Positions 208 to 55,811 of a stretch of DNA of 64,000 nucleotides are shown here, piece by piece; positions within the stretch are counted from its first letter, which is position 1, and each line of letters begins with the position of its first letter. A program made the translations under genes and the position numbers. The DNA comes from Thermoanaerobaculia bacterium (GTDB taxonomy: Bacteria > Acidobacteriota > Thermoanaerobaculia > Gp7-AA8). The notes beneath the pieces are model-generated. The model searched no databases. It was given only the letters and a program-made list of their open reading frames with translations, and had not been told where the DNA came from. The DNA lies in contig DATKCA010000283.1 of assembly GCA_035544675.1 (NCBI GenBank), positions 2,097 through 66,096 of the forward strand. Direction: 5' to 3'.

Positions 208-290
208 CCTTCTTAGTCCTTAGTCCTCCTTAGTCCTTAGTCCTTAGTCCTTGGAGACCTAAGGACTAACGCCTAACGACTAACGCCTAA
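208..290. repeat. 7-bp-periodic tandem/inverted repeat element (TCCTTAG x5 then CTAAGGA/CTAACGC units), REP-like
   Basis: Directly visible: tccttag repeated with 7-nt period, followed by imperfect reverse-complement units (cctaaggactaacgcctaacgactaacgcctaagc). Intergenic between pfk stop and next start. Confidence 0.8.
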
Positions 291-2221: not shown

Positions 2222-3850
2222 CGGCTTCTACATCGCGGCTCTTTCACTCCTCAGCATCACCGTCGCCGCGTTGTCGATCGGGAGCGTCCGGCTCGACAGC
2301 GCGACATCGGACGAGCCGGCCTACATCGCCGCCGGCATGATCAAGCTCACGGCCGGCCGGCTCGACTTCTTCCGCGACCAGCCGCCGCTCATGAACTCCA
2401 TCAGCGCGGCACCGCTCGTCGCCGCCGGCTACGAGATGCCGCCATCTGGCAGATCGGCGGAAACCACTGGGGTATCGGCCAGCGATTTCTCTTCCGCTCC
2501 GGATACGACGGCCACCGAATCCTGATGCTGGCCAGATTGCCGACGGTCGCCCTGTTCCTCGCGCTCTGCTTCGCCGTCTGTTTCTTCGTCGCCCATCACA
2601 CCGGCAGCAGGGCGTGGGGCCTCGGCGCGTTCGCGCTGACCGGCTTCTGCCCGAACCTGATGGCGCACGGCAGGCTGGCCACGGTCGACGTGGCGCTCTC
2701 GCTCTTCTGCTTCCTGGCCGTCGCGCTCTTCGTGGCCATGCTGGAGCGGCCTGCGTACATCCGTGGCGCCGGCGTCGGCGCCGCTTCCGCCGCCGCGGCG
2801 CTCTCGAAGACCTCCGGCAACATCCTCGGGCTCGTCTTTCTACTCCTGCTCGCCGTGGTCCGGCCGAAAGAGAGGAAGTTCTACCTCTGTCTCCTCATGG
2901 CGGTCATCGCCGCCGTGGCGGTGCTGGAGGTCGTCATCCTGGCCGAGGGGGGCGAGGCTTATGTTGCGGCGAACTTTCCGGATCTGCCTCGCGTGGCCGT
3001 TCCGTTCGCCGAGTATCTCGCCAACCTCGCCGCGATCCGCGACTGGTACCGGTGGGGACATGACAAGCCACAGTTCCTTCTGGGGGAGTTCTCCACGCGC
3101 GGCTGGTGGCACTACTATCCGGTCGCCATCGCCCTGAAGACGACCATCCCGGCGCTGCTGCTCGTGGCCGGCTCCTGGCTCGTAGCCTTTGTTTCGTGGA
3201 GACGCAGATCCGGCCCTGCCGAGAGCCAGGAGCCAGGAGGCGGGAGCCGCAATGCCGTCCTGGCCTGCCTGCTCTTCGCGGCGCTGTTCCTCCTGATCGC
3301 GGCGCGCGGCCAGCTGGCTCTGGGGATCCGGTACGTGCTGCCCATTTACCCGTTTCTGTATGCGGCGGCGATGATCCTGTGGAGCGCCGCGCGTGTGGCG
3401 CGGCGTCACGTCGTGTGGATGGTGACCGTGCTGCTGGTCTGGCACGCCGGCGAGAACCTGGCGGCCTACCCGTCCTACATCGGCTACTTCAACGAATTCA
3501 TCGGCTCGCACAGGAATGCGGACCGCTTTCTCATCGACTCGAATCTCGACTGGGGGCAGGACCTGCGAAGGCTCGATGTCTGGTGCCTGGAGAACGGAGT
3601 GACGGAGATTGCGCTGCACTACTTCGGCGGCGCTGACCCGGAATTCGACCTCACCGCGCGCGTGATCGGCGGATATGGCCCGGGCGCCGCGCTGCTGCCG
3701 AAGGGCTTCTTCGCGCTGAGCCGGCACTTCTATCGCGTCAGCTTCAGTCCGCAGGTCTCGCGCGTGACCTACGACGACTACCTCGCCGCATCGAAGGCGC
3801 GCTACGTGACGACGGTGGGCGACTCGATCATGGTGTACCGCATCGAATGA
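2214..3850 (+). pseudogene. glycosyltransferase family 39 (ArnT/PMT-like) paralog, disrupted by a frameshift near nt 2440-2455
   Basis: ORFs 2214..2525 and 2525..3850 together are colinear with the intact downstream paralog 3847..5385. N-terminal parts align in frame 1; from ~2452 the alignment continues in the +1 frame (..IWQIGGNHWGIGQRFLFRSGYD.. vs paralog ..GWRAAPEHWTAGHALLYRSGYD..). Could also be a sequencing error. Confidence 0.55.
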
Positions 3851-5385
3851 GCCCGCGCATCGTGCTCGCCGTCCTGGCCATCGTCGTCGCCGCGCTCGCG
3901 GTTGGGAGTGTCCGGCTGGACAGCGCGACGGCGGACGAAGGCGCGCACATCGTGGCGGGCCTCGTCAAGCTGAAGACCGGGACCATGGACTTCTTCCCGG
4001 AGCAGCCTCCGCTCATGAACTCGTTGAGCGCGCTGCCGCTCGCCCTCGGCGGATACGAGCCTCCGACCGGCTGGCGCGCGGCGCCGGAGCACTGGACCGC
4101 GGGTCATGCTCTGCTCTACCGGAGCGGATACGACGCACGGCGGATGCTGTTTCTCGCGCGACTACCCACGATCGCGCTCTTTCTGGCGCTCTGTTTCCTG
4201 GTGTACTGGTTCGTTGCGCGCGAGAGCGGGAGCCGGTGGTGGGGCGTCTTCGCATTTGCGCTGACAGGCTTCTGCCCGAACCTCCTCGCGCATGGACGGC
4301 TGGCCACGGTCGACATCGGAGCGACGTTCTTCATGTTCGCGGCCACCGTCATGTTCCTCGACGCACTGCGCCGCCAGGATTGGCGGCGCTCCGCTCTGGC
4401 CGGAGTGTTGACCGCCTGCGCCGTCCTCTCGAAGACCTCCGCCCTGCTCCTCGGCCCGTACTTTCTGGTGATCGCGATCGTCTTCGCGATCAGGAGGCGT
4501 CCCGTCATCAGGACGATCGTGATCAGCTCGATCGCGGCGCTGGTGGTCTTCGAGGCCGTCTACCTCATCGAGGCCAGGAGCATCGACCCGCTTCTGCCGT
4601 TCCGCGGGTACTGGAAGAACGTCGAGGCCATCCGTGCCTGGGTCACGACCGGCCACGAACGGCCGCAGTTCCTGCTCGGCGAGTTCTCGACGCGAGGCTG
4701 GCCGCATTACTTCCTCGTGGCCTGGCTGCTCAAGGTTCCCCTCGGCGCACAACTGCTCGTGATCGCCGGCGCGGTGCTGGCGGTACGGCGCCGCAATCCC
4801 ATCGTGATCGCCATGCTGGGTTTCGTCCTGTTCTTCCTGGCCGTCTCCATGACCAGCCACATCAACCTCGGTCTCCGCTACGTGCTGCCCGTGTTCCCGT
4901 TCGCGTTCGCCGGTGCGGTGATCTCCCTCAGCGCGGCGAACAAACGTGCCGTGGCCGCGGTGAGCGGCGTTCTGCTGGCGTGGCACATCGGATCGAGCCT
5001 CCTCACCTATCCGGGCTACATCAGTTACTTCAACGAGCTGATCGGAAGCCATCGCAACGCCGACAGGTTCCTCATCGACTCGAACCTCGACTGGGGGCAG
5101 GACCTGCAGCGCCTGCGTCTGTGGGCCGATGCGAACGGCGTGGACTCCATCCGCATCGACTACTTCGGGGGCGGTGACATCCGCTACGAGCTCGGCGATC
5201 GCGCCCAGTCGTGGCCGGCGCCGCGGCCCGAGCCACTGCCGCGGGGATGGTTCGCGCTGAGCCGCCACATGTACCGCTCCCGGACGACGGAAGCGCCGAT
5301 CGACTACGACAGCTATCTGGCAGGCTCGCGTGCGGAGTACGTCACCACTGTCGGGGGCTCGATCCTCGTCTATCGCGTCGAGTAG
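3847..5385 (+). CDS. glycosyltransferase family 39 protein (ArnT / dolichyl-phosphate-mannose-protein mannosyltransferase-like), polytopic membrane
   Basis: 512 aa, many TM helices. N-terminal DE..H...G......G..DFFPEQPPLMN motif typical of PMT_2/ArnT-like transferases. Tandem duplicate of upstream pseudogene. Confidence 0.75.
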   Translation: MSPRIVLAVLAIVVAALAVGSVRLDSATADEGAHIVAGLVKLKTGTMDFFPEQPPLMNSLSALPLALGGYEPPTGWRAAPEHWTAGHALLYRSGYDARRMLFLARLPTIALFLALCFLVYWFVARESGSRWWGVFAFALTGFCPNLLAHGRLATVDIGATFFMFAATVMFLDALRRQDWRRSALAGVLTACAVLSKTSALLLGPYFLVIAIVFAIRRRPVIRTIVISSIAALVVFEAVYLIEARSIDPLLPFRGYWKNVEAIRAWVTTGHERPQFLLGEFSTRGWPHYFLVAWLLKVPLGAQLLVIAGAVLAVRRRNPIVIAMLGFVLFFLAVSMTSHINLGLRYVLPVFPFAFAGAVISLSAANKRAVAAVSGVLLAWHIGSSLLTYPGYISYFNELIGSHRNADRFLIDSNLDWGQDLQRLRLWADANGVDSIRIDYFGGGDIRYELGDRAQSWPAPRPEPLPRGWFALSRHMYRSRTTEAPIDYDSYLAGSRAEYVTTVGGSILVYRVE

Positions 5386-6845: not shown

Positions 6846-6865
6846 CTCCGTGCTTCCTCTGTGTT

Positions 6866-6909
6866 CTCTGTGACTCTGTGGTGATCTCTTGAACCACAGA
6901 GTCACAGAG
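6866..6909. repeat. hairpin palindrome CTCTGTGACTCTGTGGT-N10-ACCACAGAGTCACAGAG between convergent genes (bidirectional terminator / REP)
   Basis: Perfect 17-bp arms read directly. Same arms recur at 18107..18149. Confidence 0.8.
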
Positions 6910-10240: not shown

Positions 10241-10342
10241 TGGCTCGTGGTCAACGTGGAATGGAGCGGCACCCGCGCTCCATGATGTGCACTCGTGCCT
10301 GTTGGCCGGCCATTCTCCGGGGTGCTATAGAATCCGCCGCCT

Positions 10343-17013: not shown

Positions 17014-17110
17014 CCCATCAGGGGGCCTCGGGCCTCAGGAAGCCGCCGCTCATCCAGCGATCGGTTCTCCCGAGGCCCGAGGCCCGAGGCCTAAGGCCCG
17101 AGGCCTAACC
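17014..17110. repeat. REP-like hairpin of GGCCTCG/CCCGAGG heptamer units
   Basis: ggggcctcgggcctcagg ... cccgaggcccgaggcccgaggcctaaggcccgaggcc directly after OmpA stop. Confidence 0.75.
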
Positions 17111-17150
17111 TTTCCCCCTCCCTTCCGTCTATTAGCGCAACGGAGGGTTC

Positions 17151-18026: not shown

Positions 18027-18250
18027 ATCGGCCTTGGGGTTAGCCGTCAGGCCTTAGGGGAGCCGGTCTCCTAAGGCCTGAGGAACCTCTGCGTAAGCTC
18101 TGCGTCCTCTGTGACTCTGTGGTTTGACGTCAACCACAGAGTCACAGAGATCACAAAGTTGCGCAGAGGCTCCCTAAGGCCTAAGGACTAAGGACCAAGG
18201 CCTAAGGACTAAGGCCGTCTAACGCCGAGCGTCTAACGCCTGAAGTCACC
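18027..18250. repeat. composite REP cluster: CCTAAGG heptamer arrays flanking a nested perfect palindrome
   Basis: ggccttagg..cctaaggcctgagg | ctctgcgtaagctctgcgt | CTCTGTGACTCTGTGGTTTGACGTCAACCACAGAGTCACAGAG | gcgcagagg | cctaaggcctaaggactaaggaccaaggcctaaggactaagg | cgtctaacgccgagcgtctaacgcc. Confidence 0.85.
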
Positions 18251-18265
18251 CTTTACAATGACGCG

Positions 18266-25017: not shown

Positions 25018-25091
25018 CCGGTGGGCATGGGCGGTGTCTACGGGTTCTGTTACGAGAGTCAAAAGCCGGGCTCGGGCTCGGGCACGGGGAC

Positions 25092-26327: not shown

Positions 26328-26448
26328 GTCGCTATCTCCAGAAAAAACGAATGGCCAGCTCAGTGGCCAACCTGACTACACGGGCCTTTGCTTCTTTCAT
26401 TCCCGTGCTGGTGACGACTGACTGACCTGGGGGAGGGAGGGTGTGTTC

Positions 26449-27100: not shown

Positions 27101-27879
27101 CGCCGGTCAGGGCGATCGGCTTCGATCTCTGGGAAACGCTGATCACCGACACCCCCGACATGTCGAAGGCGCAGCAGCGCCTGCGGCTGGTGAGGATGGA
27201 GGAGATCCTCGTCCGGCACGGCCACGGCGCTCTGGCCGGCCGGCTCGAGCACGCCCATCGCGAGGTCTGGCATCGCTGCCACGATCTGTACTGGTCGCGG
27301 GACGAGGACATCCCCTGCCGCCGCCAGATCGAGCACCTGCTCGAAGAGCTCGGGCTCGATCCGCGATCGCTGAGTGAGAGCGCGCTGTCGGCGCTCGAAG
27401 ACGCCTACGCCACGGCGGCGGTCGAGATCCCCCCCGCCGTCGTGGACGGGGCCGCCGGCGCCCTGGCCGCGCTGAAGGATCGCGGGCTGGGGATCGGCCT
27501 GGTCAGCAATACCGGCCGCACGCCCGGCTCCGCGCTGCGGGAGATTCTCGCGCAGGCCGGCCTCGCGCAATTCATCGACGTGATGGTCTTCTCCAACGAG
27601 CACGGCGTCTGCAAGCCGCAGACTTCCATCTTCGACGAGCTTCGCCGCGGCCTCGGCACCTCCTTCAGCGAGATGCTCTTCGTGGGCGACAACACCTACG
27701 TCGACGTCTACGGAGCGCAGCGCGCCGGCATGAGAGCGATCCACTTCGACCCTCCCGTGCGGGGCACCGCAGTCGCTCCGCACGTGGAGGCGGGGGAGGA
27801 GGTCGTACCGTTTGCGCGGGTCACGAGATTGAGGGACGTCGTTGCGCTCGTCGATGAGAGGATGAAGGATGAAGGATGA
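27097..27879 (+). CDS. HAD-superfamily hydrolase
   Basis: GTG start overlapping upstream stop (GTGA). Motif I IGFDLWETL (DxD-type variant FDLW), motif III/IV K...VGDN..D. The last codons are encoded by the 27861..27900 repeat. Confidence 0.7.
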   Translation: MTPVRAIGFDLWETLITDTPDMSKAQQRLRLVRMEEILVRHGHGALAGRLEHAHREVWHRCHDLYWSRDEDIPCRRQIEHLLEELGLDPRSLSESALSALEDAYATAAVEIPPAVVDGAAGALAALKDRGLGIGLVSNTGRTPGSALREILAQAGLAQFIDVMVFSNEHGVCKPQTSIFDELRRGLGTSFSEMLFVGDNTYVDVYGAQRAGMRAIHFDPPVRGTAVAPHVEAGEEVVPFARVTRLRDVVALVDERMKDEG

Positions 27880-27900
27880 GGGATCCTTCATCCTTCATCC
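27861..27900. repeat. hairpin GATGAAGGATGAAGGATGAGG / CCTTCATCCTTCATCC (heptamer GATGAAG units)
   Basis: Perfect inverted arrangement read directly. Overlaps HAD gene 3' end and stops 4 nt before the next start. Confidence 0.8.
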
Positions 27901-27903
27901 TGT

Positions 27904-28755
27904 ATGGACAAGGAGTTCTTCTCTCTCGCCACCCGGCACTTCACGATCGAGGGCCGGTCTCGCGCCGGTCATGAGACCTGGTTCCGCATCCGCGAGCTCG
28001 GCGCGGCGCTCGACATCGGCCGCTGTCCCGATGCGATCATCAGCATGCCTCGCGTCTTCATCACCCACGCCCATCTCGACCACGCTCTGGGCATCCCTTT
28101 CTACGCCGGGCAGCGGCACCTGCAGCGCATCGCCGGCGGCTCGGTCTATGTACCCTCCGAGACCGCGGACGATTTCCGCGAGCTGATGCGCCTTCACGAG
28201 AAGCTCGAAGGGACCGGCTACGGGATCGAGATCGTCGGCGCCGAGCCTGGTCAGACCTTCCGCCTGGGCCGCACGCACGTGGTCCGGGCCCATCGCGCAA
28301 CGCATCGCGTGCCGGCGCGCGCATACGAGTTTCTGGAGGTCCGCCGCCATCTGAAGAGCGAGTTTGCCGATCTGGACGGCCCCCGCCTGGCCGCGCTGCG
28401 CCGGGCCGGAACGGAGGTGGCCGGGGAGGCGCTCCACCCGCTCCTGTTTTATACCGGGGACTCGGATCGCGGCATCCTCGAGGAGAACGAGAGGCTGTTC
28501 CTCGCGGAGGTGCTCATGATCGAGTGCTCGTTCGTCGAGGACGGCCACCAGGAACGGGCCGCCCGTTACCGGCACATCCACTTCGACGACATCGCCGCCT
28601 TCGCCGAAGCATTCGAGAACCAGCTCATCGTGCTGACGCACTTCAGCCGCCGATATTCCCGCCAGACGATTCGCGATACCATCCGGCGCCGCTGCCCGCA
28701 GCGGCTGCGCGACCGCATCCGACTGGCGCTGCCGCAACCCTTCACGCTTCTGTAG
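27904..28755 (+). CDS. MBL-fold metallo-hydrolase (RNase Z / ElaC-like short form)
   Basis: HxHxDH motif (ITHAHLDHALG) and downstream His/Asp ligands. Confidence 0.8.
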   Translation: MDKEFFSLATRHFTIEGRSRAGHETWFRIRELGAALDIGRCPDAIISMPRVFITHAHLDHALGIPFYAGQRHLQRIAGGSVYVPSETADDFRELMRLHEKLEGTGYGIEIVGAEPGQTFRLGRTHVVRAHRATHRVPARAYEFLEVRRHLKSEFADLDGPRLAALRRAGTEVAGEALHPLLFYTGDSDRGILEENERLFLAEVLMIECSFVEDGHQERAARYRHIHFDDIAAFAEAFENQLIVLTHFSRRYSRQTIRDTIRRRCPQRLRDRIRLALPQPFTLL

Positions 28756-30335: not shown

Positions 30336-30369
30336 TGGGGGCCTCGGGCCTCAGGCCTCGGGCCTCGGG
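30336..30369. repeat. tandem GGCCTCG heptamer repeat (x4.5)
   Basis: gggggcctcgggcctcaggcctcgggcctcggg immediately after dacB stop. Confidence 0.8.
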
Positions 30370-33792: not shown

Positions 33793-33866
33793 GCGCGGGG
33801 CTCCGGGCTCGGGGCCAGCGGCTCGGGGGAACGACTGGTCGCCCTGAGCCCTGAGCCCGGAGCCCG
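33793..33866. repeat. REP-like hairpin (GGGCTCC/GGGCTCG vs GAGCCCT/GAGCCCG units)
   Basis: gcggggctccgggctcggggcc...gccctgagccctgagcccggagcccg: long imperfect inverted repeat. Confidence 0.75.
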
Positions 33867-33881
33867 ATTACACTGCGCCGC

Positions 33882-34292
33882 GTGAACTATCCCGAGATCG
33901 ATGACCTCCCCGACTTTCCGGTCGAGGCCGGCTTCGCGGTCGAGCTCCGCGAAGCCGTCGACGGCGGGCTTCACGTTCACTTCGTCCGCTCGGCCGGCGG
34001 GGAGGAGCTGGCGCGCTTCCCGGCGTGGGATCACGCGGACCGTGACCTGCGCCACTTCACGCCGTACGACGTGCCGATCGGGAGCATCGACGAGCCCTAC
34101 GGCGACTCCGACGAGGCGTGGCGCATCCAGATCTTCGAACATGGAGGCTTCGTCTATGTGCTGCAGGGCGACGAGCCTCATGCCGAGGAGTTCGAGATGT
34201 TCTTCAGGGTGCCGCGGGATCAGTACCTGCAGGCGTGGGCGTTCGTGATCGACGCGTACAACCCGATCACGCCGCTCGACGACGCGAGCTGA
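33882..34292 (+). CDS. hypothetical protein (136 aa), translationally coupled to downstream RNA methyltransferase
   Basis: GTG start. Stop overlaps next ATG (TGATG). No family recognised. Confidence 0.45.
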   Translation: MNYPEIDDLPDFPVEAGFAVELREAVDGGLHVHFVRSAGGEELARFPAWDHADRDLRHFTPYDVPIGSIDEPYGDSDEAWRIQIFEHGGFVYVLQGDEPHAEEFEMFFRVPRDQYLQAWAFVIDAYNPITPLDDAS

Positions 34293-37974: not shown

Positions 37975-38006
37975 GCGTCCCCCCGAGGCCCGAGGCCCGA
38001 GGCCCC
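37975..38006. repeat. CCGAGGC heptamer tandem repeat between convergent ligA and surA-like genes
   Basis: ccccgaggcccgaggcccgaggcccc read directly. Confidence 0.75.
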
Positions 38007-43437: not shown

Positions 43438-43473
43438 CAGGCCTCGGGCCTCGGGCCCCAGGCCCGAGGCCCC
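43438..43473. terminator. GC-rich hairpin (GGCCTCGGGCCTCGGGCC-CCA-GGCCCGAGGCCCC) between convergent dnaJ and TPR genes; REP-type bidirectional terminator candidate
   Basis: Perfect-ish 13-bp stem read directly. No U-tract. Confidence 0.55.
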
Positions 43474-45330: not shown

Positions 45331-46488
45331 ATGCAGGTCGTCCTCCAAGGGAACCTCACGAAATTCCCGCTCTCGCAGTTGCTCACGCTGTTGAGTGAGC
45401 ATTCGCACAGCGGCACGCTCGACATCGAGTCTGGTGCGAGCCGTGCGCGCGTTTTCATCGACGGCGGAAAGGTGATCTTCGCCGAGTCGAGCGATGGCAC
45501 GGCGGGCAATGCCGGTGAGGCTGTCGTCCGCACGTTCGAGTGGCCGGACGCGCAGTTCACGTTCCTTGACGGCATGTCGCTCCCGGACAAGGCCACGCGC
45601 GTGACGCTCGACGTGGAGTCGATCGTCGCGGAGGCGGCCAAGCGCGCCGAGGGAGGGTATGCCGACTACGCGATGTTCCGGGTGATCGACAATCCCGCCG
45701 CGCAGGAGAAGATCACGATCGCGCCGGAGGAATTCACGCTGCTCTTCAAGATCGGCATGGGAAAGACGTTCGGCGACCTGGTGAGCGAGCCGGGCGCGAC
45801 CCGCCGCGCCACCGGCGCGAAGCTGAAGATTCTCGAGAAAGCCGGTCTCGTGCTGCGCGTCGACCAGGCTGCACCGAGCATGATACCCGGCGCGTCGCAG
45901 AACACCGCCGAGACCCCGCGGCCGAAGGGCCGTGAAGAGCGGCGTCCACGCGCCCAAGCGCCCGCCGAGGGAGTCGAGAAAACGGTCTTCGCCCCGAAAG
46001 TGGATATGGCGGACGCGACGCAGTTCACACCGCCTCCCCCTCCCCCTCGCCAGCCCACTGACGAGATCCCGGCTCCCCTGGCCACCGAGAAGACGCAGGC
46101 CGGCGAGGTTCCCGTGCCGCCCGTGGCATCCGCGCCTCCCCCTCCGATCCTCGGCGACCCGAAGAACCTGTTCGGATCGCTCACGCCCGACAGCGGCGAT
46201 ACCTGGCCGCTGGTCGACAACGAGTACACGATCGGCCGCGACGACACGAACAGCATCCCCGTGCCCGACGGCAGCATCTCGTCGAAACACGCCCGTCTCC
46301 TCAGGAATGAACAGGGCTTCTGGGTCGAAGACCTCGGAAGCCGCAACGGGACCTTCGTCAACGGCGAGAAGGTGACGGACAAGCGACTTCTGTCGAACGG
46401 CGACCTGGTCCGCTTCGGCAAAGTGATCATGACCTTCCATATGGCGCAGGACAGCAGCTCGGACCAGACCGTCGTCGAGTCGAAATAG
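45331..46488 (+). CDS. DUF4388 (PATAN) domain + C-terminal FHA domain protein
   Basis: N-terminus GNLTKFPLSQLLTLLSEHSHSGTL is the DUF4388 hallmark. Pro-rich linker. FHA motifs (TIGRDD..SSKHARL..GSRNGTFVNG). Confidence 0.75.
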   Translation: MQVVLQGNLTKFPLSQLLTLLSEHSHSGTLDIESGASRARVFIDGGKVIFAESSDGTAGNAGEAVVRTFEWPDAQFTFLDGMSLPDKATRVTLDVESIVAEAAKRAEGGYADYAMFRVIDNPAAQEKITIAPEEFTLLFKIGMGKTFGDLVSEPGATRRATGAKLKILEKAGLVLRVDQAAPSMIPGASQNTAETPRPKGREERRPRAQAPAEGVEKTVFAPKVDMADATQFTPPPPPPRQPTDEIPAPLATEKTQAGEVPVPPVASAPPPPILGDPKNLFGSLTPDSGDTWPLVDNEYTIGRDDTNSIPVPDGSISSKHARLLRNEQGFWVEDLGSRNGTFVNGEKVTDKRLLSNGDLVRFGKVIMTFHMAQDSSSDQTVVESK

Positions 46489-46511
46489 CGGCCAAACGTT
46501 CAAAAAAGACA

Positions 46512-48890
46512 ATGAAATTTGATCTAGTGATTGTCGGGTCCGGCCCGGCCGGTCTCGCCGCCGCGTCTCACGCTCACACCAACGGGATGAAGTACGTGCT
46601 GCTCGAGCGCGTCGATCACCTGTCGGACACGATCTATCAATATCAGGCTCGCAAGTACGTCATGGCCGAGCCGATGATGATCCCGGCGCGCGGCGACGTC
46701 CCGTTCGAGGCGGGATCGCGCGAGTCCATCCTCGAAGCCTGGGACAGGCACGCCGCGGACCGCCAGGTGAACATCGAGCTGAAGGCCGAGGTGAACTCGG
46801 TCGAGAAGACCGCGGACGGATTCGTCGTCGCCACGAAGGCCGGCAACAAGTACGAGACCGCGGCCGTGGTACTGGGGATGGGTACGCAGGGGAACCCGAG
46901 AAAACTCGGCGTGACCGGCGAGGATTTGCCTAACATCCGCTACCGCCTGAACGACGCGAAGGAACACCAGGAGCAGGACATCCTCGTGGTCGGCGCGGGC
47001 GACTCCGCGCTGGAGATCGCGGCCGCCCTCTCGGATGAGAACCGAGTCGGCCTGGTCGTGCGCGGCGCGGAGATCACGCGCGCGAACGAGGTGCTGACGC
47101 GCGACGCGCTGTCGCGGCAGGCCAGCGGCCGCATGACCATCTACTTCAACACGACGGTGAAGGAAGTCGGCGAGGGCTACGTCGATCTCAACGTGCGCGG
47201 GGACACCACGCGCATCCCCAATGAGCTGATCTTCCTCAAGCTGGGCGCCGACGCGCCGCGCAAGTTCCTCGAGAAAATCGGGATCAAGTACAGCGGACCG
47301 GGTGCCGACGCCCGGGCCATGCTGAGCCCGGTGCACGAGACGACCGTGCCGAAGCTGTTCCTCATCGGCGCGGCGAGCGGCCGCGACCTCATCAAGCTCG
47401 GCATGAACCAGGGCTATGAAGTCGTCGAGCACCTGATGGGCCGCGAGGTCGAGCCGGCCGACGAAGCAGTGCTCAGGGAGCGGCTGCCGTTCTGGGAAGG
47501 CACGGTCCGCGAGCGCATCGCCGCGATTCGGTCCCGCGCGCCGCTGCTCGCCGCCGCGGACGAACAGCAGCTCCGCGACACGTTCCTGTCCGCTCGCGTT
47601 CGCGAGTACAAGAACGGCGAGATCATCATCCGTCAGAACGACTACACCAACGACTTCCTCATCGTGGCCTCGGGGCGCGTCGAGCTCTATCGCCGGCCCG
47701 AAAAAACAAACGCCGACGTGAAAGTCGCCGAGATCACCGCCGGCAACTTCTTCGGCGAGATGAGCCTCATCTCCGGACGCCGCCGTACGGCCACGGCCAA
47801 GGCCATGGGGAACACGCGCGTGATCGAGATCCCGCGCAAGGCCATGCTGCGTCTTCTGGCGTCCTCGCCGAAGGCGAAAGCGCTCATGGACCAGGCCTTC
47901 CTGCTCCGCGCGTTCGGCGGCTACCTCTTCCCCGGCATCGCCGAGGGGGCGCTCGGCGAGCTGGTCGAGAAGGCCGTCGTCGAGAACATCGGCAAAGACG
48001 CGGTGGTGTTCAAGGAAGGCGATGCAGCGGAAGCGTTCTACCTGATCCGCAGCGGCATGATGAAGATCGCCAAGCAGTCGGGCGACAAGGAAGTCGTGCT
48101 CTCGTACCTGGTGGCCGGCAACTTCTTCGGCGAGGCCGCGCTCTTCTCCGATGCCGAGCGCACCGCTACCGTCAGCGCGATCTTCCCGGCCGAGCTGGTG
48201 AAGCTCTCCAAGAAAGACTTCGACAACTTCCTGGGCATCCGTCCCGAGCTGCGCGAGCTCCCGCTGCGCAAGCTCGAGGAGCGCCGCATCGCCGGCCTCA
48301 TCGCCGAGGCCACGCCGGGATCCGGCAACATCCTCTCCGACCTCATCCGCGAGGAAGTGGTCATGGGAACGCAGACCCTGGTCATCGACGAGCACCGCTG
48401 CGTGCGATGCGGGAACTGCGTCCGCTCCTGCGAGGGCGTGCACGACGACGGTCAGGCCCGCATCTCCCTCACCGGCATCAAGTTCTACAACCTCCTGGCG
48501 CCGAACTCGTGCTGGCAGTGCGAGAACCCGATGTGCATGCTGGACTGCCCGCCCGACGCCATCTCCCGCGATCCGCGCGGCGAGGTCTACATCAAGAGCA
48601 ACTGCATCGGCTGCGGCAACTGCGAGCGCAACTGCCCCTACGGCAACATCTTCATGGTCCACAAAGAGCCGAAGAAGTCGATCACCGGCTGGATCAAATC
48701 GATCTTCGGAAAAGGCAAGCACGAGGACGCGATCGAGCAGACCTTCGCCGTCAAGTGCGATCTCTGCCGTGGTATCTCCGGCGGCCCCGCATGTGTCCGC
48801 GGCTGTCCGACCGGAGCGGCAATCCGACTGACACCGGAGCAGTATCGGGAGACCCTGGAAGAGCTGGTCATTTCGCGAGGGGAGAGGTAG
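46512..48890 (+). CDS. fusion protein: thioredoxin-reductase-type FNR-like flavoprotein + 2x cyclic-nucleotide-binding domains + 4x [4Fe-4S] ferredoxin motifs
   Basis: Two Rossmann GxGxxG (VIVGSGPAGLAAA; LVVGAGDSALEIAAAL) without the TrxR CxxC. Two CAP_ED signatures (FFGEMSL..RRTATAKA; FFGEAAL..ERTATVSA). Four CxxCxxCxxxCP-like motifs (CVRCGNCVRSCE, CWQCENPMCMLDCP, CIGCGNCERNCP, CDLC...CVRGCP). Confidence 0.8.
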   Translation: MKFDLVIVGSGPAGLAAASHAHTNGMKYVLLERVDHLSDTIYQYQARKYVMAEPMMIPARGDVPFEAGSRESILEAWDRHAADRQVNIELKAEVNSVEKTADGFVVATKAGNKYETAAVVLGMGTQGNPRKLGVTGEDLPNIRYRLNDAKEHQEQDILVVGAGDSALEIAAALSDENRVGLVVRGAEITRANEVLTRDALSRQASGRMTIYFNTTVKEVGEGYVDLNVRGDTTRIPNELIFLKLGADAPRKFLEKIGIKYSGPGADARAMLSPVHETTVPKLFLIGAASGRDLIKLGMNQGYEVVEHLMGREVEPADEAVLRERLPFWEGTVRERIAAIRSRAPLLAAADEQQLRDTFLSARVREYKNGEIIIRQNDYTNDFLIVASGRVELYRRPEKTNADVKVAEITAGNFFGEMSLISGRRRTATAKAMGNTRVIEIPRKAMLRLLASSPKAKALMDQAFLLRAFGGYLFPGIAEGALGELVEKAVVENIGKDAVVFKEGDAAEAFYLIRSGMMKIAKQSGDKEVVLSYLVAGNFFGEAALFSDAERTATVSAIFPAELVKLSKKDFDNFLGIRPELRELPLRKLEERRIAGLIAEATPGSGNILSDLIREEVVMGTQTLVIDEHRCVRCGNCVRSCEGVHDDGQARISLTGIKFYNLLAPNSCWQCENPMCMLDCPPDAISRDPRGEVYIKSNCIGCGNCERNCPYGNIFMVHKEPKKSITGWIKSIFGKGKHEDAIEQTFAVKCDLCRGISGGPACVRGCPTGAAIRLTPEQYRETLEELVISRGER

Positions 48891-48918
48891 GAGAAGGGCG
48901 CCCCGAGCCCAAAGAACG

Positions 48919-49749
48919 ATGGCAGTCCCACGATCCGGACCCACTTGGCGTCGCATTTTCGCCGTGCTGCTTTTTGCCGTGGCGGTCTCGTACGCGTACT
49001 ACGCGCGCGATGAGTTTCCGCACGGCGGGACGAAGATCGGTCTGACCCTCGGCATCATCGGGCTGCTGCTCATTCTCCTGCTCGCGTACTTCGGGATCCG
49101 GAAGCGCTCCTACCGCTCCACCTTCGGCACGCTCGAACAGTGGATGCAGTCCCACATCTACCTCGGCATCCTCGTGTTCGTGATCCTGCTGCTGCACACC
49201 GGCGGAAGGTTCAACGACCAGATCGCCGTGACGACGTTCATCCTCGTCGGAGCGGTGGTCCTCTCCGGGATTCTGGGAGCGATCCTCTATGTGACGGTCC
49301 CCCGGATGCTGACCGAGGTGGAGAGCAACCTCACCATCGAGGAGATCTCGGACAACGCCAACCAGCTGGCGCGGCAGATGGCGCGCACCGCCTCCGGCAA
49401 GTCGGCTCCGTTCCAGCGCATCTACGATGAGCTGATCTACGAGACGCGCCCGGGGTGGCTGGCCGGCTGGCGCCTGGTCATCTACAGCGCTCGAAAGAAG
49501 GGGCAGACCTCGTCGGACTGGGCGAATCTGCTGCGGCTCGTGCCGAAAGAGGAGCAGGACGAGCTCCGGTCCCTTCTGGTGACCTCGCGTCAGCGGAAGG
49601 AGCTGCTGCTTCGCCTGATGTATCAGCAGCGCTACAAGAACATCCTCGAGGCGTGGCTCTACATCCATGTTCCGTTCACGATCGCGTTGCTCGTCTTCTC
49701 GGCTCTGCACGTCGCGGCCGTTTTCTATTACGGGAGCGTGAGGTGGTGA
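48919..49749 (+). CDS. integral membrane protein, putative dihaem cytochrome b (ferric-reductase-like, two H-x13-H pairs)
   Basis: 5 predicted TM helices. TM3 SHIYLGILVFVILLLH and TM5 IHVPFTIALLVFSALH each carry two His spaced exactly 13 residues apart, as in bis-His haem b ligation of FRD/NOX/MsrQ-type proteins. Confidence 0.5.
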   Translation: MAVPRSGPTWRRIFAVLLFAVAVSYAYYARDEFPHGGTKIGLTLGIIGLLLILLLAYFGIRKRSYRSTFGTLEQWMQSHIYLGILVFVILLLHTGGRFNDQIAVTTFILVGAVVLSGILGAILYVTVPRMLTEVESNLTIEEISDNANQLARQMARTASGKSAPFQRIYDELIYETRPGWLAGWRLVIYSARKKGQTSSDWANLLRLVPKEEQDELRSLLVTSRQRKELLLRLMYQQRYKNILEAWLYIHVPFTIALLVFSALHVAAVFYYGSVRW

Positions 49750-49753
49750 GCGC

Positions 49754-52087
49754 ATGAGTTACGTCATCCAGCTCGTCCAGGGCCGGGCCCTCAAGCTCAC
49801 GCAGGTTCGTGCTGACGTGCTCCGCATCGGACGCGGAACCAATGCCGACGTCCGCTCGGACAATCCTGCCGTCGCGTTCGAGCACGCCATCATCGAGAAG
49901 GATTCCGGCGGGTACTACACGATCATCGACAAGGGCAGCATCACCGGCACCTACGTCAACCGCAAGCCCGTGGAGCAGCAGCGCCTCGGCAAGGGCGACG
50001 TCATCGAGGTCGGTGACCTGCGCATCGAAGTTCAGGTTGCGGACACCACCAAGCCGCTCTTTCTCCGCCAGCTCTCTTCGCGCCGGCAGGCCGCGGCGCC
50101 CGGATATGCAGACGTTGGCGAGGACACCGGTTCCGGGTATCAGGCTGAAGCAGGAACCGGCACGATCGCAGCCGAGAAGGTCGACTACGTCGATGCCTAC
50201 GCGCTGCGGCGTCCCTGGCTGCACAAGTCGACCGTCGCATCGATCCTCCTGATCATCGCCCTGGGCGTGGTCGGCGAGGTCACGCAGGAGGACAAGCAGA
50301 GCGTGTTCATGCCCGGCGGCGTCTCGTCGGCGCACTCGCGCGCCCGCGACGCCCAGGGCAATAGCATCGCCGAGCGATGCGCCGCCTGTCACACTCCGTG
50401 GAAGAGCATCACCGACGACAAGTGCGCACAGTGCCACGCCATGGCGCCGCATGCCACGCACGAGCTGAAGGCGCCGGCATGCTTCACCTGCCACTCCGAG
50501 CATCGCGGGCTGGCCAGGCTGGCGGCCATTCCCGACGTGCGCTGCAACGAGTGCCACAAGGACCTCAGCAAGCACGTCAAGACGAGCCCGGACGAGCTGG
50601 CCAAGCTGCGTTTCGCGGATGGCCGTTACAGCTTCGCGGAGATCCAGAAGATCAACGCATTCGGCGACGTGCATCCCGAGTTCGTCTTCCCGGCCGATAC
50701 GAACACGCTCAAGTTCAACCACAAGCTGCACCTCGCCCCGAACGGCGTCTTCAACGCCACGGGGCGGCGCGAAGTCCTGGCCTGTAACGACTGCCATAAC
50801 CTGGTGGACGTCCGCGGCAAGGTCGATCCGGTCCAGCTCCAGTTCGATACTCACTGCCAGCGTTGCCACAAACTGACGTTCGACCCGCGCTTCCCGCGGG
50901 CCGAGGCGCCGCACGGTGGCGATCCGGGGCTGGTGTACGGATTCGTTCTGGCCACGTACGCGGGGAACACCGAGCTGGCGGGCAAGTCCGCCGTCGAGGT
51001 GCGGCGCCTCTTGTCCCAGCGGCAGGTGGTGGCACCCGATCAGCGCGCGCTGCTCAATGCCGAGCAGGTCATCAAGACCAAATGCGACAAGTGCCATGAC
51101 CTGGAACGGCGCGGCCCCAACAATCAGCTTGCCGCCGTGCCGCCGAAGATCCCCACCACGTGGTTCGCCGCCTCCGACTTCGAGCACGGCGCCCACAAGC
51201 AGATCAGCTGCGAGCAGTGCCACGACAAGGTCCGCCAGAGCGTCCCCACCAGCGACGTGCACATGCCGACGCGCGAGGACTGCACGGAATGCCACGGGAC
51301 GAAGGCCGCGCCCGGTGTCAAGCAGACATCGAGTGCATGCGTGGCCTGTCACGACTATCATTTGCGGACTGATCAGACCAAACCGATAGTATTGGCAGCG
51401 GGACTCGCGGGCACGGCAGGGCCGGCGGGCGCACTGCTCGATCCCGCCAGCGGAGGGCGAATGCTTCAGACCATTCTCATCGCAGCAATCATTGTCCTGC
51501 TCTTCGTGGTCTTCATCCCGCTCGGCGCCGCGCTTTATCAGCGTCTGAAACCGTCGCGCACGGCCACTCCGCGAGGAGCCGCTCCGGCCAAGGGACCCAC
51601 GGTGAAGGTACCGCCGATGTCCGCTCCGCCCATGCAGGCCCCTTCGGCTCCGGCCGAGCCGCCGCAGCGCGCATCCGCTCCCCGTCCGCCGGCCGAGGCC
51701 GCGCCCACACAGATGCTCAATCTCGACGCCATCAAGCCTCCGGCCTCGGGCCCCGTAGCGGGCGGTGCGACGGAGATGCTGCAGTGGTACGGAATGCTCC
51801 GATGCACTTCCGGCCCGCTGGACGGGCAGAATTTCATCATCGAGGAGGACGGCTTCTACATCGGCCGCGATTCGACGATGTCGAAAGTCGTGATCAACGA
51901 CGGGCGCGTGTCGAAGAGGCACGTGAAGATCCAGCCGCGAAACGGGAAGGTGTTCGCCATCGATGAAGGATCGACGAACGGCACGTTCCTCACCGCGGGC
52001 GGGCAGCGCATCACCGAACACCAGCTCAAGCGCGGGGACACTCTGATTCTGGCCGACAACGCTGCCACATTCGTGTATCAGATCTGA
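49754..52087 (+). CDS. inner-membrane protein: N-terminal FHA - TM - periplasmic decahaem cytochrome c domain (10x CxxCH) - TM - Pro-rich linker - C-terminal FHA
   Basis: FHA1 in aa 1-95 (IGRGTNADV..FEHAII..ITGTYVN). TM helices at aa 161-176 and 570-596 with positive-inside flanks. CxxCH at aa 209, 224, 243, 264, 344, 368, 444, 486, 510 and 529. FHA2 in aa 676-777 (YIGRD..SKRHVKI..GSTNGTFL). Confidence 0.8.
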   Translation: MSYVIQLVQGRALKLTQVRADVLRIGRGTNADVRSDNPAVAFEHAIIEKDSGGYYTIIDKGSITGTYVNRKPVEQQRLGKGDVIEVGDLRIEVQVADTTKPLFLRQLSSRRQAAAPGYADVGEDTGSGYQAEAGTGTIAAEKVDYVDAYALRRPWLHKSTVASILLIIALGVVGEVTQEDKQSVFMPGGVSSAHSRARDAQGNSIAERCAACHTPWKSITDDKCAQCHAMAPHATHELKAPACFTCHSEHRGLARLAAIPDVRCNECHKDLSKHVKTSPDELAKLRFADGRYSFAEIQKINAFGDVHPEFVFPADTNTLKFNHKLHLAPNGVFNATGRREVLACNDCHNLVDVRGKVDPVQLQFDTHCQRCHKLTFDPRFPRAEAPHGGDPGLVYGFVLATYAGNTELAGKSAVEVRRLLSQRQVVAPDQRALLNAEQVIKTKCDKCHDLERRGPNNQLAAVPPKIPTTWFAASDFEHGAHKQISCEQCHDKVRQSVPTSDVHMPTREDCTECHGTKAAPGVKQTSSACVACHDYHLRTDQTKPIVLAAGLAGTAGPAGALLDPASGGRMLQTILIAAIIVLLFVVFIPLGAALYQRLKPSRTATPRGAAPAKGPTVKVPPMSAPPMQAPSAPAEPPQRASAPRPPAEAAPTQMLNLDAIKPPASGPVAGGATEMLQWYGMLRCTSGPLDGQNFIIEEDGFYIGRDSTMSKVVINDGRVSKRHVKIQPRNGKVFAIDEGSTNGTFLTAGGQRITEHQLKRGDTLILADNAATFVYQI

Positions 52088-52096
52088 GGGATATCG

Positions 52097-53806
52097 ATGC
52101 GTGCATTCTTGACTACTTCTGCGGCGATCCTTCTTGCCTCCCTGGCCGGCGCTCAGGTGCCGAACCCCGAACCGGAATCGTGCAGCGCGCCCCTGAGCGC
52201 GGTGGCCCGCTGTTCGGAGGCCGAGGGTGGAGGAGAGGAGTTCGACTCGCTCAACCCGGCCGAGATCGACGCCATCGTGAAGGCCGCGGCGAGCGCAACC
52301 AACCGCACCGACCTCACCATCGCCGTGGTCGACCGGGCCGGCCGTCCGCTGGCTCTCTTCCGCCAGCCCAACGCCGATCCCGAGAACGACGACAAGGCCG
52401 TGGGCGTGGCCAGGACCACGGCGTTCTTCAGCCACAACCAGGCCCCGCTGTCCTCGCGCACCGTCCGGTTCATCAGCGCGATCCATTTTCCCACCGGGGT
52501 CACCAACACCAACAGCGCGGCGCTGTATGGCATCGACAACACCAACCGCGGCTGCGACTTCAACGTCGTGTTCAACGAAGGCAAGTGCACGCCCCGCGCG
52601 CGCAGCCTCAACGGACGCCCCTGCAATGCCTTCGACACGAGCGGGTGCGGACAGGGAATCGTCACCGGCAAGATCTTCCCGGGTGACGAGATCCAGCAGT
52701 CGGTGAACGCGGGCGGCATCCCGCTGTTCCGCATCCTGAATCTGACCGAGGCCGACCAGGGTCGCGTCTCCGAAGGAAAGATGATCGGCGGCATCGGCGT
52801 CGTCGGCATCTCCGAGGATCCCAGAGAGGAAGATCCGCAGATCACCGAATACGCCGCGGCGACGGGGGCGTTCGGCGCTCTCAACGCCGGCGTCGGGGCC
52901 ATCGTCCCCGTGCCCCAGTTTCCCCTGCCGAAGCCGGGTAACGTCTTCATCGACGGCATCCGCCTCCCCTTCCTCGGCCGCGACATCACGCTGCGGTTCA
53001 ACGAGGACGGTCTGCCGACTGGCGTGCTGCTGGCGGGGATCCAGGCTGGCACCGATGCCGGCGAATACGCGATCGCGCCGCGCAACGGCGGATGCGCCGC
53101 GAACGGCTACCTGGTCGGGCCTCTGGCCGGCTCGAGACTGACGGCCGCTGAAGTCGACGCGATCGTTCGCCGCGCCGACTCCGCCGCCAAGAGAACCCGC
53201 GCGGCGATCCGCCTCCCGCTCAATCGCTACGCGCGGATGGCCATCGCGGTGGCCGACCTGGACGGGACGCTCCTGGCCGTCTACCGGATGCCGGATGCGA
53301 CGATCTTCTCCACCGACGTATCTGTGGCCAAGGCGCGCAACGTCGTCCACTTCAGCACTTCGACCGATCTGGCGGGCGTGCCGGCGGGAACCGCGGTCAC
53401 CAACCGATCCATCGCGTTCGGCAGCCACCCCTTCTTCCCGCCGGGCATCGACGGGCGCAACTTCAAGCCCCGCCCCGGTCCCTTCTTCGAGTCGATCTTC
53501 GTGCGCGATCTCAACAATCCCTGCTCCCAGGGACTGCAGCCGGCCAACGCCAATCAGAGCGGCATCGTCTTCTTCGCCGGCTCGACGCCGCTGTTCCGCG
53601 GCAACGAGATGATCGGCGGCCTGGGAGTATCCGGCGACGGCATCGAGCAGGACGACTACGTGACGTTCCTCGGCGCGGGAGAGTTCCTGCCGCCCCGGGA
53701 GCGGTGGGCGGACCGCATCATCATTGATAAGGTCCGGCTGCCGCAGTACAAGTTCCCAAGACAACCGGAAGGCGTCACAGAATGTGGAGGTGGACCGTGC
53801 GACTGA
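52097..53806 (+). CDS. secreted protein with two GlcG/HbpS-like (DUF336, haem-/cofactor-binding) domains
   Basis: Signal peptide. Two segments resembling the DUF336 core (IDAIVKAAASAT..DLTIAVVDRAGRPLALFR..AVGVARTTAFF and VDAIVRRADSAAKRT..RMAIAVADLDGTLLAVYRM..SVAKARNVVHF). Confidence 0.6.
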   Translation: MRAFLTTSAAILLASLAGAQVPNPEPESCSAPLSAVARCSEAEGGGEEFDSLNPAEIDAIVKAAASATNRTDLTIAVVDRAGRPLALFRQPNADPENDDKAVGVARTTAFFSHNQAPLSSRTVRFISAIHFPTGVTNTNSAALYGIDNTNRGCDFNVVFNEGKCTPRARSLNGRPCNAFDTSGCGQGIVTGKIFPGDEIQQSVNAGGIPLFRILNLTEADQGRVSEGKMIGGIGVVGISEDPREEDPQITEYAAATGAFGALNAGVGAIVPVPQFPLPKPGNVFIDGIRLPFLGRDITLRFNEDGLPTGVLLAGIQAGTDAGEYAIAPRNGGCAANGYLVGPLAGSRLTAAEVDAIVRRADSAAKRTRAAIRLPLNRYARMAIAVADLDGTLLAVYRMPDATIFSTDVSVAKARNVVHFSTSTDLAGVPAGTAVTNRSIAFGSHPFFPPGIDGRNFKPRPGPFFESIFVRDLNNPCSQGLQPANANQSGIVFFAGSTPLFRGNEMIGGLGVSGDGIEQDDYVTFLGAGEFLPPRERWADRIIIDKVRLPQYKFPRQPEGVTECGGGPCD

Positions 53807-55797: not shown

Positions 55798-55811
55798 GGG
55801 ACGAGGCTTAG

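Follow-up and report, generated by a model that had tools for sequence, protein, structure and literature searches.

Hairpin-forming heptanucleotide arrays at gene ends in a soil Thermoanaerobaculia genome

Introduction

Tandem arrays of 7-nt units that are over-represented relative to other unit lengths, biased towards non-coding DNA and phylogenetically scattered make up the heptanucleotide class of long simple sequence repeats (SSRs) of Mrazek, Guo and Shah (2007), for which a slippage-type origin has been proposed, according to the accounts given in PMC4679880 and PMC4692102. Here we describe heptamer arrays in a 64,000-nt stretch of chromosomal DNA (hereafter the window) from an uncultured soil acidobacterium of the class Thermoanaerobaculia (contig DATKCA010000283.1). 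The repeats are a hairpin-forming, multi-unit variant of this known class, newly seen in Thermoanaerobaculia. They differ from the long SSRs of those accounts, which do not list Thermoanaerobaculia among the genomes described, in that several unit families occur per genome and 78% of the arrays stand in inverted hairpin pairs, as opposed to ∼30% among the cross-phylum matches listed below.

The GGGAATC repeats of Xanthomonas and the GGGGA(C/T)T repeats of Nostoc (PMC4692102) share many properties with the present arrays. They are intergenic heptamers near the ends of open reading frames (ORFs), are under-represented between divergent genes, neighbour genes of unrelated function and vary per site in length and sequence among close relatives; some of them form convergent inverted pairs capable of folding into stem-loops. 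Those genomes carry one dominant, G-rich unit with G-quadruplex capacity and few inverted pairs, whereas here there are many units, most of them unable to form quadruplexes, and pairing is the rule.

Heterocystous cyanobacteria reportedly contain heptamers, termed STRR, described by Mazel et al. in 1990. Together with Xanthomonas GGGAATC and Beggiatoaceae TAACTGA, the cyanobacterial heptamers are the most thoroughly studied examples of the class. Like the STRR and the TAACTGA repeats of Beggiatoaceae (PMC4679880), the arrays studied here are genome-specific heptamers at many intergenic sites whose function is unexplained. Most STRR and TAACTGA repeats are direct arrays on a single strand, and they often immediately precede a start codon, whereas ours are palindromic doublets after stop codons.

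In architecture the arrays resemble repetitive extragenic palindromic (REP) sequences and their BIME and REPIN composites (PMC3116915, PMC3337134), which are extragenic, palindromic, dispersed and mostly arranged as inverted doublets forming one long hairpin; clean excision is common to both, and roles in mRNA 3′-end protection have been proposed for REPs. Unlike these elements, the arrays have no conserved 20–40-nt sequence, their arms consist of tandem repeats that gain or lose whole units by slippage, some derive from the flanking gene, and no REP-associated tyrosine transposase (RAYT) is found among the ∼55 window genes. A last point of comparison is provided by 3′-end stem-loops without a U-tract. 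In Escherichia coli, Rho-dependent transcripts end at such stable stem-loops, which shield them from exonucleases (PMC6061677), and structured RNA ends lacking U are found in high-GC Streptomyces (PMC8269248). The hairpins described here are likewise stable, GC-rich and located just downstream of genes; those elsewhere are ordinary unique hairpins, whereas these have stems of repeated units.

Results

Period-7 arrays in the window

The arrays combine SSR-type dynamics and hairpin potential with a non-coding location, and two elements were seeded locally. With a run defined as at least 12 matches in 14 positions at a given lag, the window contained 10 lag-7 runs, compared with 0.5 expected from Markov shuffles; among the other lags only lag 6, which reflects coding sequence, was comparable. 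The degenerate four-unit pattern (CYRAGGN)x4 matched the window 7 times and the shuffles 0.00 times (100 shuffles). Arrays delimited by Tandem Repeats Finder comprised 3.4–6.3 copies, and head-to-tail 7-nt copies beyond chance length, the mark of heptanucleotide long SSRs, are present in the window. The main units are NCYRAGG (CCTAAGG, ACTAAGG, CCCGAGG, CCTGAGG), CTAACGN, GAGCCCN and GATGAAG.

A preliminary description of this DNA had listed nine heptamer sites, and heptamer arrays were recovered at eight of them. The exception is 6866–6909, where a hairpin is indeed present but is built from 8-nt units (CTCTGTGA / CACAGAGT). The site 18027–18250, which had been given as a single heptamer site, turned out to be a composite of four parts, one of them an 8-mer hairpin. 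An array followed by its imperfect reverse complement, the arrangement first proposed as usual, is seen at six sites (208–290, 17014–17110, 18036–18090, 27857–27901, 33793–33866 and 43438–43473) and is absent from the one-armed arrays at 18173–18216, 30336–30369 and 37980–38006. The minimum free energy (MFE) of the six paired sites ranges from −28 to −61 kcal/mol, with z-scores of −2.8 to −8.5 against shuffles. The elements are as follows, with the strand given where one was assigned and MFE in kcal/mol.

208–255: left arm (CCTTAGT)n, ∼6 units, starting 1 nt past the stop codon (205–207) of the upstream plus-strand gene.
257–290: right arm CCTAAGG ACTAACG CCTAACG ACTAACG CCTAAG, the imperfect reverse complement of the 208–255 arm; 3 nt 5′ of a TACAAT box (294–299) and 18 nt 5′ of the enoyl-CoA hydratase start (309). 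The hairpin 208–290 has MFE −28.2, z −2.8.
6857–6909: 8-nt-unit hairpin CTCTGTGA...CACAGAGT in a convergent gap; MFE −35.4, z −5.7.
17020–17108: hairpin, left arm GGGGGCCTCGGGCCTCAGG, right arm (CCCGAGG)3 CCTAAGG CCCGAGG, after an OmpA-family gene (stop at 17013) and with a C-rich tract just downstream; MFE −61.2, z −5.9.
18036–18090: hairpin CAGGCCTTAGGGGAG / CTCCTAAGGCCTGAGG of CCYRAGG-type units, after a DUF4097 gene (stop at 18026); MFE −38.7, z −3.7.
18095–18170: second 8-mer hairpin, unit CACAGAGN, outer units decayed, core arms at 18107–18121 and 18135–18149; MFE −43.7, z −6.0.
18173–18216, plus strand: one-armed array (CCTAAGG/ACTAAGG)6 with no excess folding.
18209–18245, plus strand: 14-nt-period array CGTCTAACGCCGAG x2.5, ending 8 nt before a TACAAT box (18254–18259) that lies 6 nt upstream of a permease start (18266).
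25067–25088, minus strand: hexamer run (CCCGAG)n directly downstream of a fabF-like gene on the minus strand; CCCGAG is CCCGAGG less one G, and the run is related to the heptamer arrays.
27857–27901: perfect 19-bp hairpin, (GGATGAA)3 then (TTCATCC)2.5; the left arm codes the last codons and stop (27877–27879) of a HAD-hydrolase gene, and 2 nt separate the right arm from the start (27904) of a metallo-beta-lactamase-fold gene; MFE −40.5, z −8.5.
30336–30369, plus strand: one-armed array (GGGCCTC)4.4, 8 nt past the D-Ala-D-Ala carboxypeptidase (S13) stop codon, with a small convergent minus-strand ORF on the other side; fold no better than shuffles.
33797–33866: hairpin, left arm (GGGCTCN)n, right arm (GCCCTGA/GCCCGGA)n, ending 2 nt before a TACACT box (33869–33874) that lies 7 nt upstream of a start at 33882; MFE −58.4, z −4.8.
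37980–38006, plus strand: one-armed array (CCCGAGG)3 that takes up the 35 nt separating ligA (stop at 37972) from a gene convergent with it (end at 38008); no folding beyond that of shuffles.
43438–43473: hairpin (GGCCTCG)2 / CCCGAGGCC filling the 49-nt gap 3′ of the hrcA-grpE-dnaK-dnaJ operon (dnaJ stop 43430), convergent with a TPR gene; MFE −35.5, z −3.9.

Arrays across relatives and other phyla

A metagenome scan with the DUF4097 protein, which has an array on both sides, yielded no relatives, and guaB was taken as the query instead. The IMP dehydrogenase of the window has its best matches, at 88–92% identity, in metagenome-assembled genomes named Thermoanaerobaculia or Acidobacteriota. 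The comparison set consisted of ∼60 loci around guaB from related soil genomes (649 kb; relatives labelled L121–L199). These contained 78 period-7 arrays, compared with 21–24 each for periods 6, 8, 9 and 12 and at most 8 each for periods 4, 5, 10 and 11. Of 83 arrays in window and relatives, 76 lie outside called genes, while 87% of the DNA is coding; over-representation of period 7 and non-coding location, the two hallmarks of heptanucleotide long SSRs, are thus both seen.

The phenomenon is lineage-wide, with units that vary from genome to genome. At least 41 distinct units occur in the relatives, among them AGGCATG, AAGGATG, ACTCAGC, AATCTCC, AACCGGC/AACCGAC/AACTGCC, AAGAGTG, AAGAGCT, AGATAGC, AACATTG, AATTCCG, GTTGTCG and CAGATAG, and one unit is often found at several sites of a single genome. 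An inverted partner lies within 150 nt of 62 of 80 period-7 arrays (78%).

A cross-phylum scan with the pattern (CYRAGGN)x4, using one genome per species (loci L001–L120), returned at least 120 stretches. The matches listed come from Acidobacteriota, Myxococcota, Chloroflexota, Cyanobacteria, Actinomycetota, Gemmatimonadota, Planctomycetota and others; among them, the loci hold 120 further period-7 arrays, compared with 7 of period 5 and 27 of period 8, and only ∼30% of the arrays are paired.

Copy-number change, gain and loss, and local origin

Arrays of close relatives differ by whole units. Between L140 and L142, whose flanks are 94% identical, one arm differs by 35 nt; between L121 and L122 the differences are 35 and 7 nt, and between other relatives 14 and 21 nt. 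The indels of 7, 14, 21, 35 and 35 nt constitute the whole-unit copy-number polymorphism typical of heptanucleotide long SSRs.

Whole hairpins are also present or absent among the relatives at precise junctions and with no target-site duplication. A 67-nt (GTTGCCG)n pair directly 3′ of a TGA stop in L149 and L152 is absent from L153 and L156. The 91-nt 8-mer palindrome of L152 stands exactly where L156 has an overlapping stop/start TGATG, and the 100-nt CACAAAGN hairpin of L174 exactly at the overlapping stop/start TGATG of L138. In L147, a 65-nt hairpin of AAGGATG-type units (5139–5203) sits exactly in the apical loop of an 8-mer hairpin of the L151 type. The two loci are 97.5% identical in the adjacent gene, and symmetric A>G / T>C changes flank the nested hairpin; such changes in both arms would fit templated copying.

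Two elements can be seen from their sequence to be built from the adjacent gene's own 3′ end. In five relatives the HAD gene ends ...GAGAGGATGATGGATGCNTAG, a natural GGATGNN-GGATG proto-repeat. In the window it ends GAGAGGATGAAGGATGAAGGATGA, followed by the reverse-complement arm, and in the closest relative, L125, many more GGATGAA units are present at this gene end. The encoded C-terminus is …ERMKDEG* in the window and …ERMMDA* in the relatives; since the array codes for it, array growth has rewritten a protein C-terminus. The second case is the 91-nt palindrome of L152, whose unit CAGCTCAAC forms the end of the flanking gene, a stretch that L156 also has at its empty site. Elements made of a gene's own 3′ end point to local slippage and template switching rather than a classical REP/RAYT family, and template switching is documented to create and homogenise hairpins (PMC8794818).

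Several observations are left without an account by local seeding and speak against it as the whole explanation. CCCGAGG-type units occur at 5 window sites, identical 8-mer arms at two sites 11 kb apart, and GCATGAG at two sites in L121/L122. In one sub-clade each (GTTGTCG)n arm carries a conserved GCGC-N3-4-GCGC head. Moreover, clean presence or absence without target duplication is also expected of IS200/IS605-like transposition through single-stranded DNA (ssDNA). Recurrence of units and the GC heads together keep REPIN-like, transposase-driven spread alive as a rival.

The sub-clade in question comprises L139, L147, L148, L149, L150, L151, L154, L155 and L169 (e.g. L147 3459–3490 and 5845–5880). 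The head forms a REP-like mini-hairpin that opens every (GTTGTCG)n arm, with the compensatory variants GCAC..GTGC and GGGC..GCCC, and head-plus-array modules of 35–45 nt are present, absent or tandemly duplicated between relatives.

A derivation of the unit length from a palindromic tetramer plus a 3-nt loop (GGCC-NNN-GGCC, 4+3=7) was dropped: of the 41 units, a palindromic tetramer occurs in 18 (17.8 expected), and those that are quasi-palindromic throughout number 7 (5.0 expected).

Position relative to genes, terminators and promoters

At every window site the array starts within ∼16 nt of a stop codon, and in the element at 27857–27901 the stop codon of the HAD gene lies inside the array. 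Convergent gaps hold the heptamer sites at 30336, 37980 and 43438 and the 8-mer site at 6866; the remaining sites lie between co-directional genes, and the window's six divergent gaps contain no arrays. The placement at gene ends, often between convergent genes, that was first noted thus holds throughout, with four convergent sites. Arrays close operons or genes after dnaJ, ligA, dacB and the OmpA-like gene.

The absence of U-tracts, from which it had been concluded that these are not intrinsic terminators, was likewise borne out. The GC-rich hairpins are present, but no T-run follows any site; a terminator scan of positions 1–40000 picked none of the sites in that range, and 43438–43473, which lies beyond it, was inspected by eye. 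In the scanned range, hairpin-plus-T-run terminators were not above shuffle expectation. The sole convincing canonical terminator-like site, a stem plus TTTTTT, is at 26352–26372 on the minus strand, between acpP and fabF, which means that U-tract terminators are open to the organism; the (CCCGAG)n run adjoins the 3′ side of fabF itself. Directly 3′ of the 17020–17108 hairpin, positions 17109–17135 form a C-rich, G-poor tract (CCTTTCCCCCTCCCTTCC) with a rut-like look, a layout that might suit the loading of Rho immediately past a protective hairpin.

Boxes resembling a −10 element (TACAAT 294–299, TAGAAT 10328–10333, TACAAT 18254–18259 and TACACT 33869–33874) lie upstream of the start codons at 309, 10343, 18266 and 33882. 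Because they are only 6–9 nt away from these, their placement suggests leaderless or near-leaderless mRNAs for the four genes. For three of the four, a heptamer array ends 2–8 nt before the box. Inspection by eye of the array ends upstream of the TACAAT-like boxes revealed no consistent −35 hexamer, and a promoter scan found no canonical sigma-70 sites at the arrays.

Polarity of the hairpin arms

In heptamer pairs the 5′ arm has more G than C at 36 sites, compared with 5 of the opposite kind (20 and 2 by distinct units). As the element is palindromic, the G-rich 5′ arm is the same on either strand. Among the cross-phylum matches listed, the counts were 36 and 10. An RNAfold-based polarity measure proved biased even in coding controls (139 vs 74) and was replaced by counts of perfect inverted repeats with a stem of at least 9, which showed a G-first bias in non-coding DNA (59 vs 28, p = 0.001) and 51 vs 50 in coding DNA.

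Carried stop codons were considered as the origin of a C-poor 5′ arm and rejected, as they occur in 12 of 25 units against 9.0 ± 2.0 (p = 0.09), not beyond composition.

Strong hairpins and gene 3′ ends

A strong hairpin was defined as one of −38.5 kcal/mol or below in 70 nt, the first percentile of coding windows. Strong hairpins are present in 33 of 146 tandem, 11 of 42 convergent and 6 of 84 divergent gaps (Fisher p = 0.001), or, when pooled, in 44 of 188 gaps with a gene 3′ end compared with the 6 of 84 divergent gaps; since the loci are orthologous regions of related genomes, Fisher tests overstate their independence, and this and the following p-values are optimistic. Period-7 arrays as such occur in 20 of 146 tandem, 10 of 42 convergent and 8 of 84 divergent gaps (p = 0.19). 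Among gaps of 60–250 nt the figures are 26 of 122 with a gene 3′ end and 6 of 69 divergent (p = 0.03).

The 3′ flank of the S13 peptidase gene holds a strong hairpin in those relatives that have a gap there, its sequence being unrelated from one to another (heptamer, 8-mer or non-periodic); in relatives whose next gene overlaps there is no hairpin. This flank and the operon-closing arrays fit selection for structure at gene ends. A role of the elements as U-tract-less 3′-end hairpins is plausible but unproven; its plausibility derives from the higher frequency of strong hairpins in gaps that hold a gene 3′ end.

Besides the non-independence of the loci, a number of findings weigh against such a role. 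Promoter gaps that are truly divergent hold arrays too (e.g. L140 2517–2612 and, upstream of guaB, L147 5837–6027), and array density per kb of gap is about equal in tandem (0.89) and divergent (0.80) gaps. Sense and antisense folding energies showed no consistent difference, and there was no G·U signature of RNA-level selection. Arm lengths can differ greatly (35 and 98 nt in L140), and a partner is lacking for three window arrays. Finally, the G-rich 5′ arm is opposite to the C-then-G pattern of Streptomyces terminators (PMC8269248).

An 8-nt-unit hairpin family

The 15-nt arm core of the 6866–6909 hairpin repeats exactly at 18107–18149, 11 kb away. Hairpins of the 8-nt unit CACAGAGN are found in the window (6857–6909 and 18095–18170) and in L141 (5631–5645), L147 (5110–5231) and L151 (5184–5240); L174 7566–7665 is a further member of the 8-nt-unit hairpin family, with the unit CACAAAGN. 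The family is common to the window and to relatives whose proteins are only ∼65–70% identical, and, with respect to the loop, the arms in L147/L151 come in the opposite order to those of the window. An inverted partner is present in 10 of 19 period-8 arrays.

Genomic setting

The window has a G+C content of 66% and ordinary chromosomal gene content, including a liv-type ABC transporter, fabF-acpP, dacB, guaB, ligA, hrcA-grpE-dnaK-dnaJ, citrate synthase and multihaem cytochromes. The genome is compact: only ∼3.3 kb of the window (∼5%) is non-coding, and arrays and hairpins sum to ∼660 nt, roughly a fifth of it. Pfam searches revealed no transposase or RAYT among the ∼55 window genes; Rfam covariance models gave 0 matches at gathering score, and the window has 0 tRNA or tmRNA genes.

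Two tandem paralogous PMT_2-type glycosyltransferase genes (2222–3850 and 3847–5385) share about 70–73% DNA identity at an offset of 1,541–1,625 nt, and the first contains a period-7 run at 3218–3246. At 45331–60871, FHA-domain proteins, a cNMP-binding pyridine-nucleotide oxidoreductase and several multihaem cytochrome c proteins, including an LVIVD-repeat protein of 1,243 aa, are clustered with hardly any intergenic DNA and no arrays.

Discussion

Our leading explanation, which we hold tentatively and place just short of an even chance, is that the heptamer arrays arise locally, through SSR slippage and template switching, and are retained as 3′-end hairpins. Arrays would expand where they stand, in the very short gaps between the genes of this Thermoanaerobaculia lineage. 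A 7-nt proto-repeat near a gene end would be amplified through replication slippage, and intrastrand template switching would then make an inverted copy, so that an array comes to face its reverse complement in a long hairpin. Copy number would go on shifting by whole units, and whole hairpins would be cleanly lost or gained. A hairpin directly after a stop codon would be transcribed and may act as a barrier that fixes and protects the mRNA 3′ end after Rho-dependent termination, or as a weak bidirectional terminator; a role of this kind would explain the retention of hairpins after stop codons. The 7-nt step would reflect a mutational process, as proposed for the heptanucleotide repeats of other bacteria, and not a sequence-specific reader.

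The same mutational origin without any function is possible though doubtful in our judgement. The arrays would then be tolerated by-products that pile up in non-coding DNA, with their apparent 3′-end preference a mere consequence of stronger constraint on promoters. The similar densities in tandem and divergent gaps, the missing sense/antisense folding asymmetry, the unequal and one-armed arrays and the rapid turnover of units and copy numbers all suit this explanation, as does the fact that Rehm et al. could identify no regulatory role of the Xanthomonas and Nostoc heptamers (PMC4692102). It does not readily accommodate the array density of convergent gaps, ∼2.5 times that of other gap types, nor the ∼fourfold higher frequency of strong hairpins of any kind in 3′-end gaps and the replacement of one unrelated hairpin by another at the S13 3′ flank wherever a gap exists. 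The use of ∼20% of the scarce (∼5%) non-coding DNA by arrays is likewise hard to square with pure junk.

Only slightly lower we place a REPIN-like origin, which we regard as unlikely. Here the arrays would be non-autonomous mobile DNA, with each arm a REP-like module and the inverted doublet as the unit of replication, moved via ssDNA by a RAYT/IS200/IS605-type enzyme encoded elsewhere in the genome. The reading of the repeats as REP/BIME-like in the preliminary description stands as far as architecture and location are concerned (extragenic, palindromic, dispersed, no U-tract). Inverted doublets predominate as in REP, BIME and REPIN elements (62 of 80 arrays here, 61% for Pseudomonas REPs; PMC3116915), one unit recurs at several sites per genome, and the apical loop of one hairpin contains a second one. 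Whole elements are cleanly present or absent (L149/L152 against L153/L156, L174 against L138, L152 against L156), and the GTTGTCG family, with its compensatory GC-head variants and modules that come and go, adds to the resemblance. Membership of the REP family fails, because the elements lack a conserved REP sequence, change in an SSR-like manner and in some cases derive locally: in place of a 20–40-nt palindrome conserved genome-wide, the window copies share only 7–8-nt units. The remark that a strict 7-nt periodicity is unusual for REPs was right, and the heptanucleotide long-SSR class is the better home. Transposition as such is countered by the missing transposase among the window genes and by window families without a conserved head or terminus. 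A sequence-specific transposase would not tolerate units that differ by genome and even by site; two elements were demonstrably made from the flanking gene's own sequence, and arrays change by unit slippage and not only as whole elements.

A bolder variant, which we consider distinctly improbable, would have the 7-nt (sometimes 8-nt) register and the G-first polarity imposed by a lineage-specific machine. The array pairs would then form a class of their own, modular gene-end insulators that act in both directions and independently of a U-tract, arise de novo from the 3′ end of each gene itself and are tuned by unit slippage. The step size of a polymerase or repair enzyme, or a protein reading duplex in 7-bp steps, could be candidates for such a machine.

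Still less credence is given to the idea that the arrays bind a protein or RNA-binding regulator, or act as contingency loci tuning the spacing of promoters or ribosome sites. Several units do carry GGA or Shine–Dalgarno-like motifs (AAGGATG, GAGG, GGAG), three window arrays end 2–8 nt before −10-like boxes, so that a change in copy number would alter upstream promoter DNA, and one hairpin abuts a start codon (27901 to 27904). Binding of a post-transcriptional regulator has been proposed by MacGregor for the TAACTGA repeats (PMC4679880). Such functions are difficult to reconcile with the great diversity of units (at least 41 in the relatives), with the sequestration of most arrays in duplex with a partner and with neighbouring genes that are ordinary housekeeping genes of unrelated functions; the same conclusion was reached by Rehm et al. 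for Xanthomonas (PMC4692102).

G-quadruplex or i-motif elements like the GGGAATC-type repeats of Xanthomonas and Nostoc are the least probable alternative: although at least four G3 runs with short loops can be read from the sequence at 30336–30369, 33797–33830 and 37980–38006 (GGGCCTC, GGGCTCN and the CCCGAGG complement), and Rehm et al. showed quadruplex formation by G3-containing heptamers (PMC4692102), most units have no G3 run (CTAAGG, GATGAAG and CTAACGN; GTTGTCG, AAGAGCT and CAGATAG in relatives), and the hairpin duplex competes wherever a partner arm exists.

Heptanucleotides are the commonest long SSRs in many bacterial genomes, and both the preference for 7 nt and their function have been unexplained since the first cyanobacterial sightings. 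The lineage studied here offers an unusually clean comparative system, in which arrays take up about one fifth of a very small intergenic space and most are paired into hairpins, and in which related genomes capture births from gene 3′ ends, unit-wise expansion, nested growth and clean loss. In practical terms, the arrays affect the annotation of gene ends, with one stop codon lying inside an array, and the assembly and binning of soil metagenomes. The lineage makes it possible to test whether hairpins are working gene-end signals in U-tract-poor, high-GC bacteria, whether template switching or a transposase is the maker of the elements, and what causes the 7-nt step and the G-first polarity.

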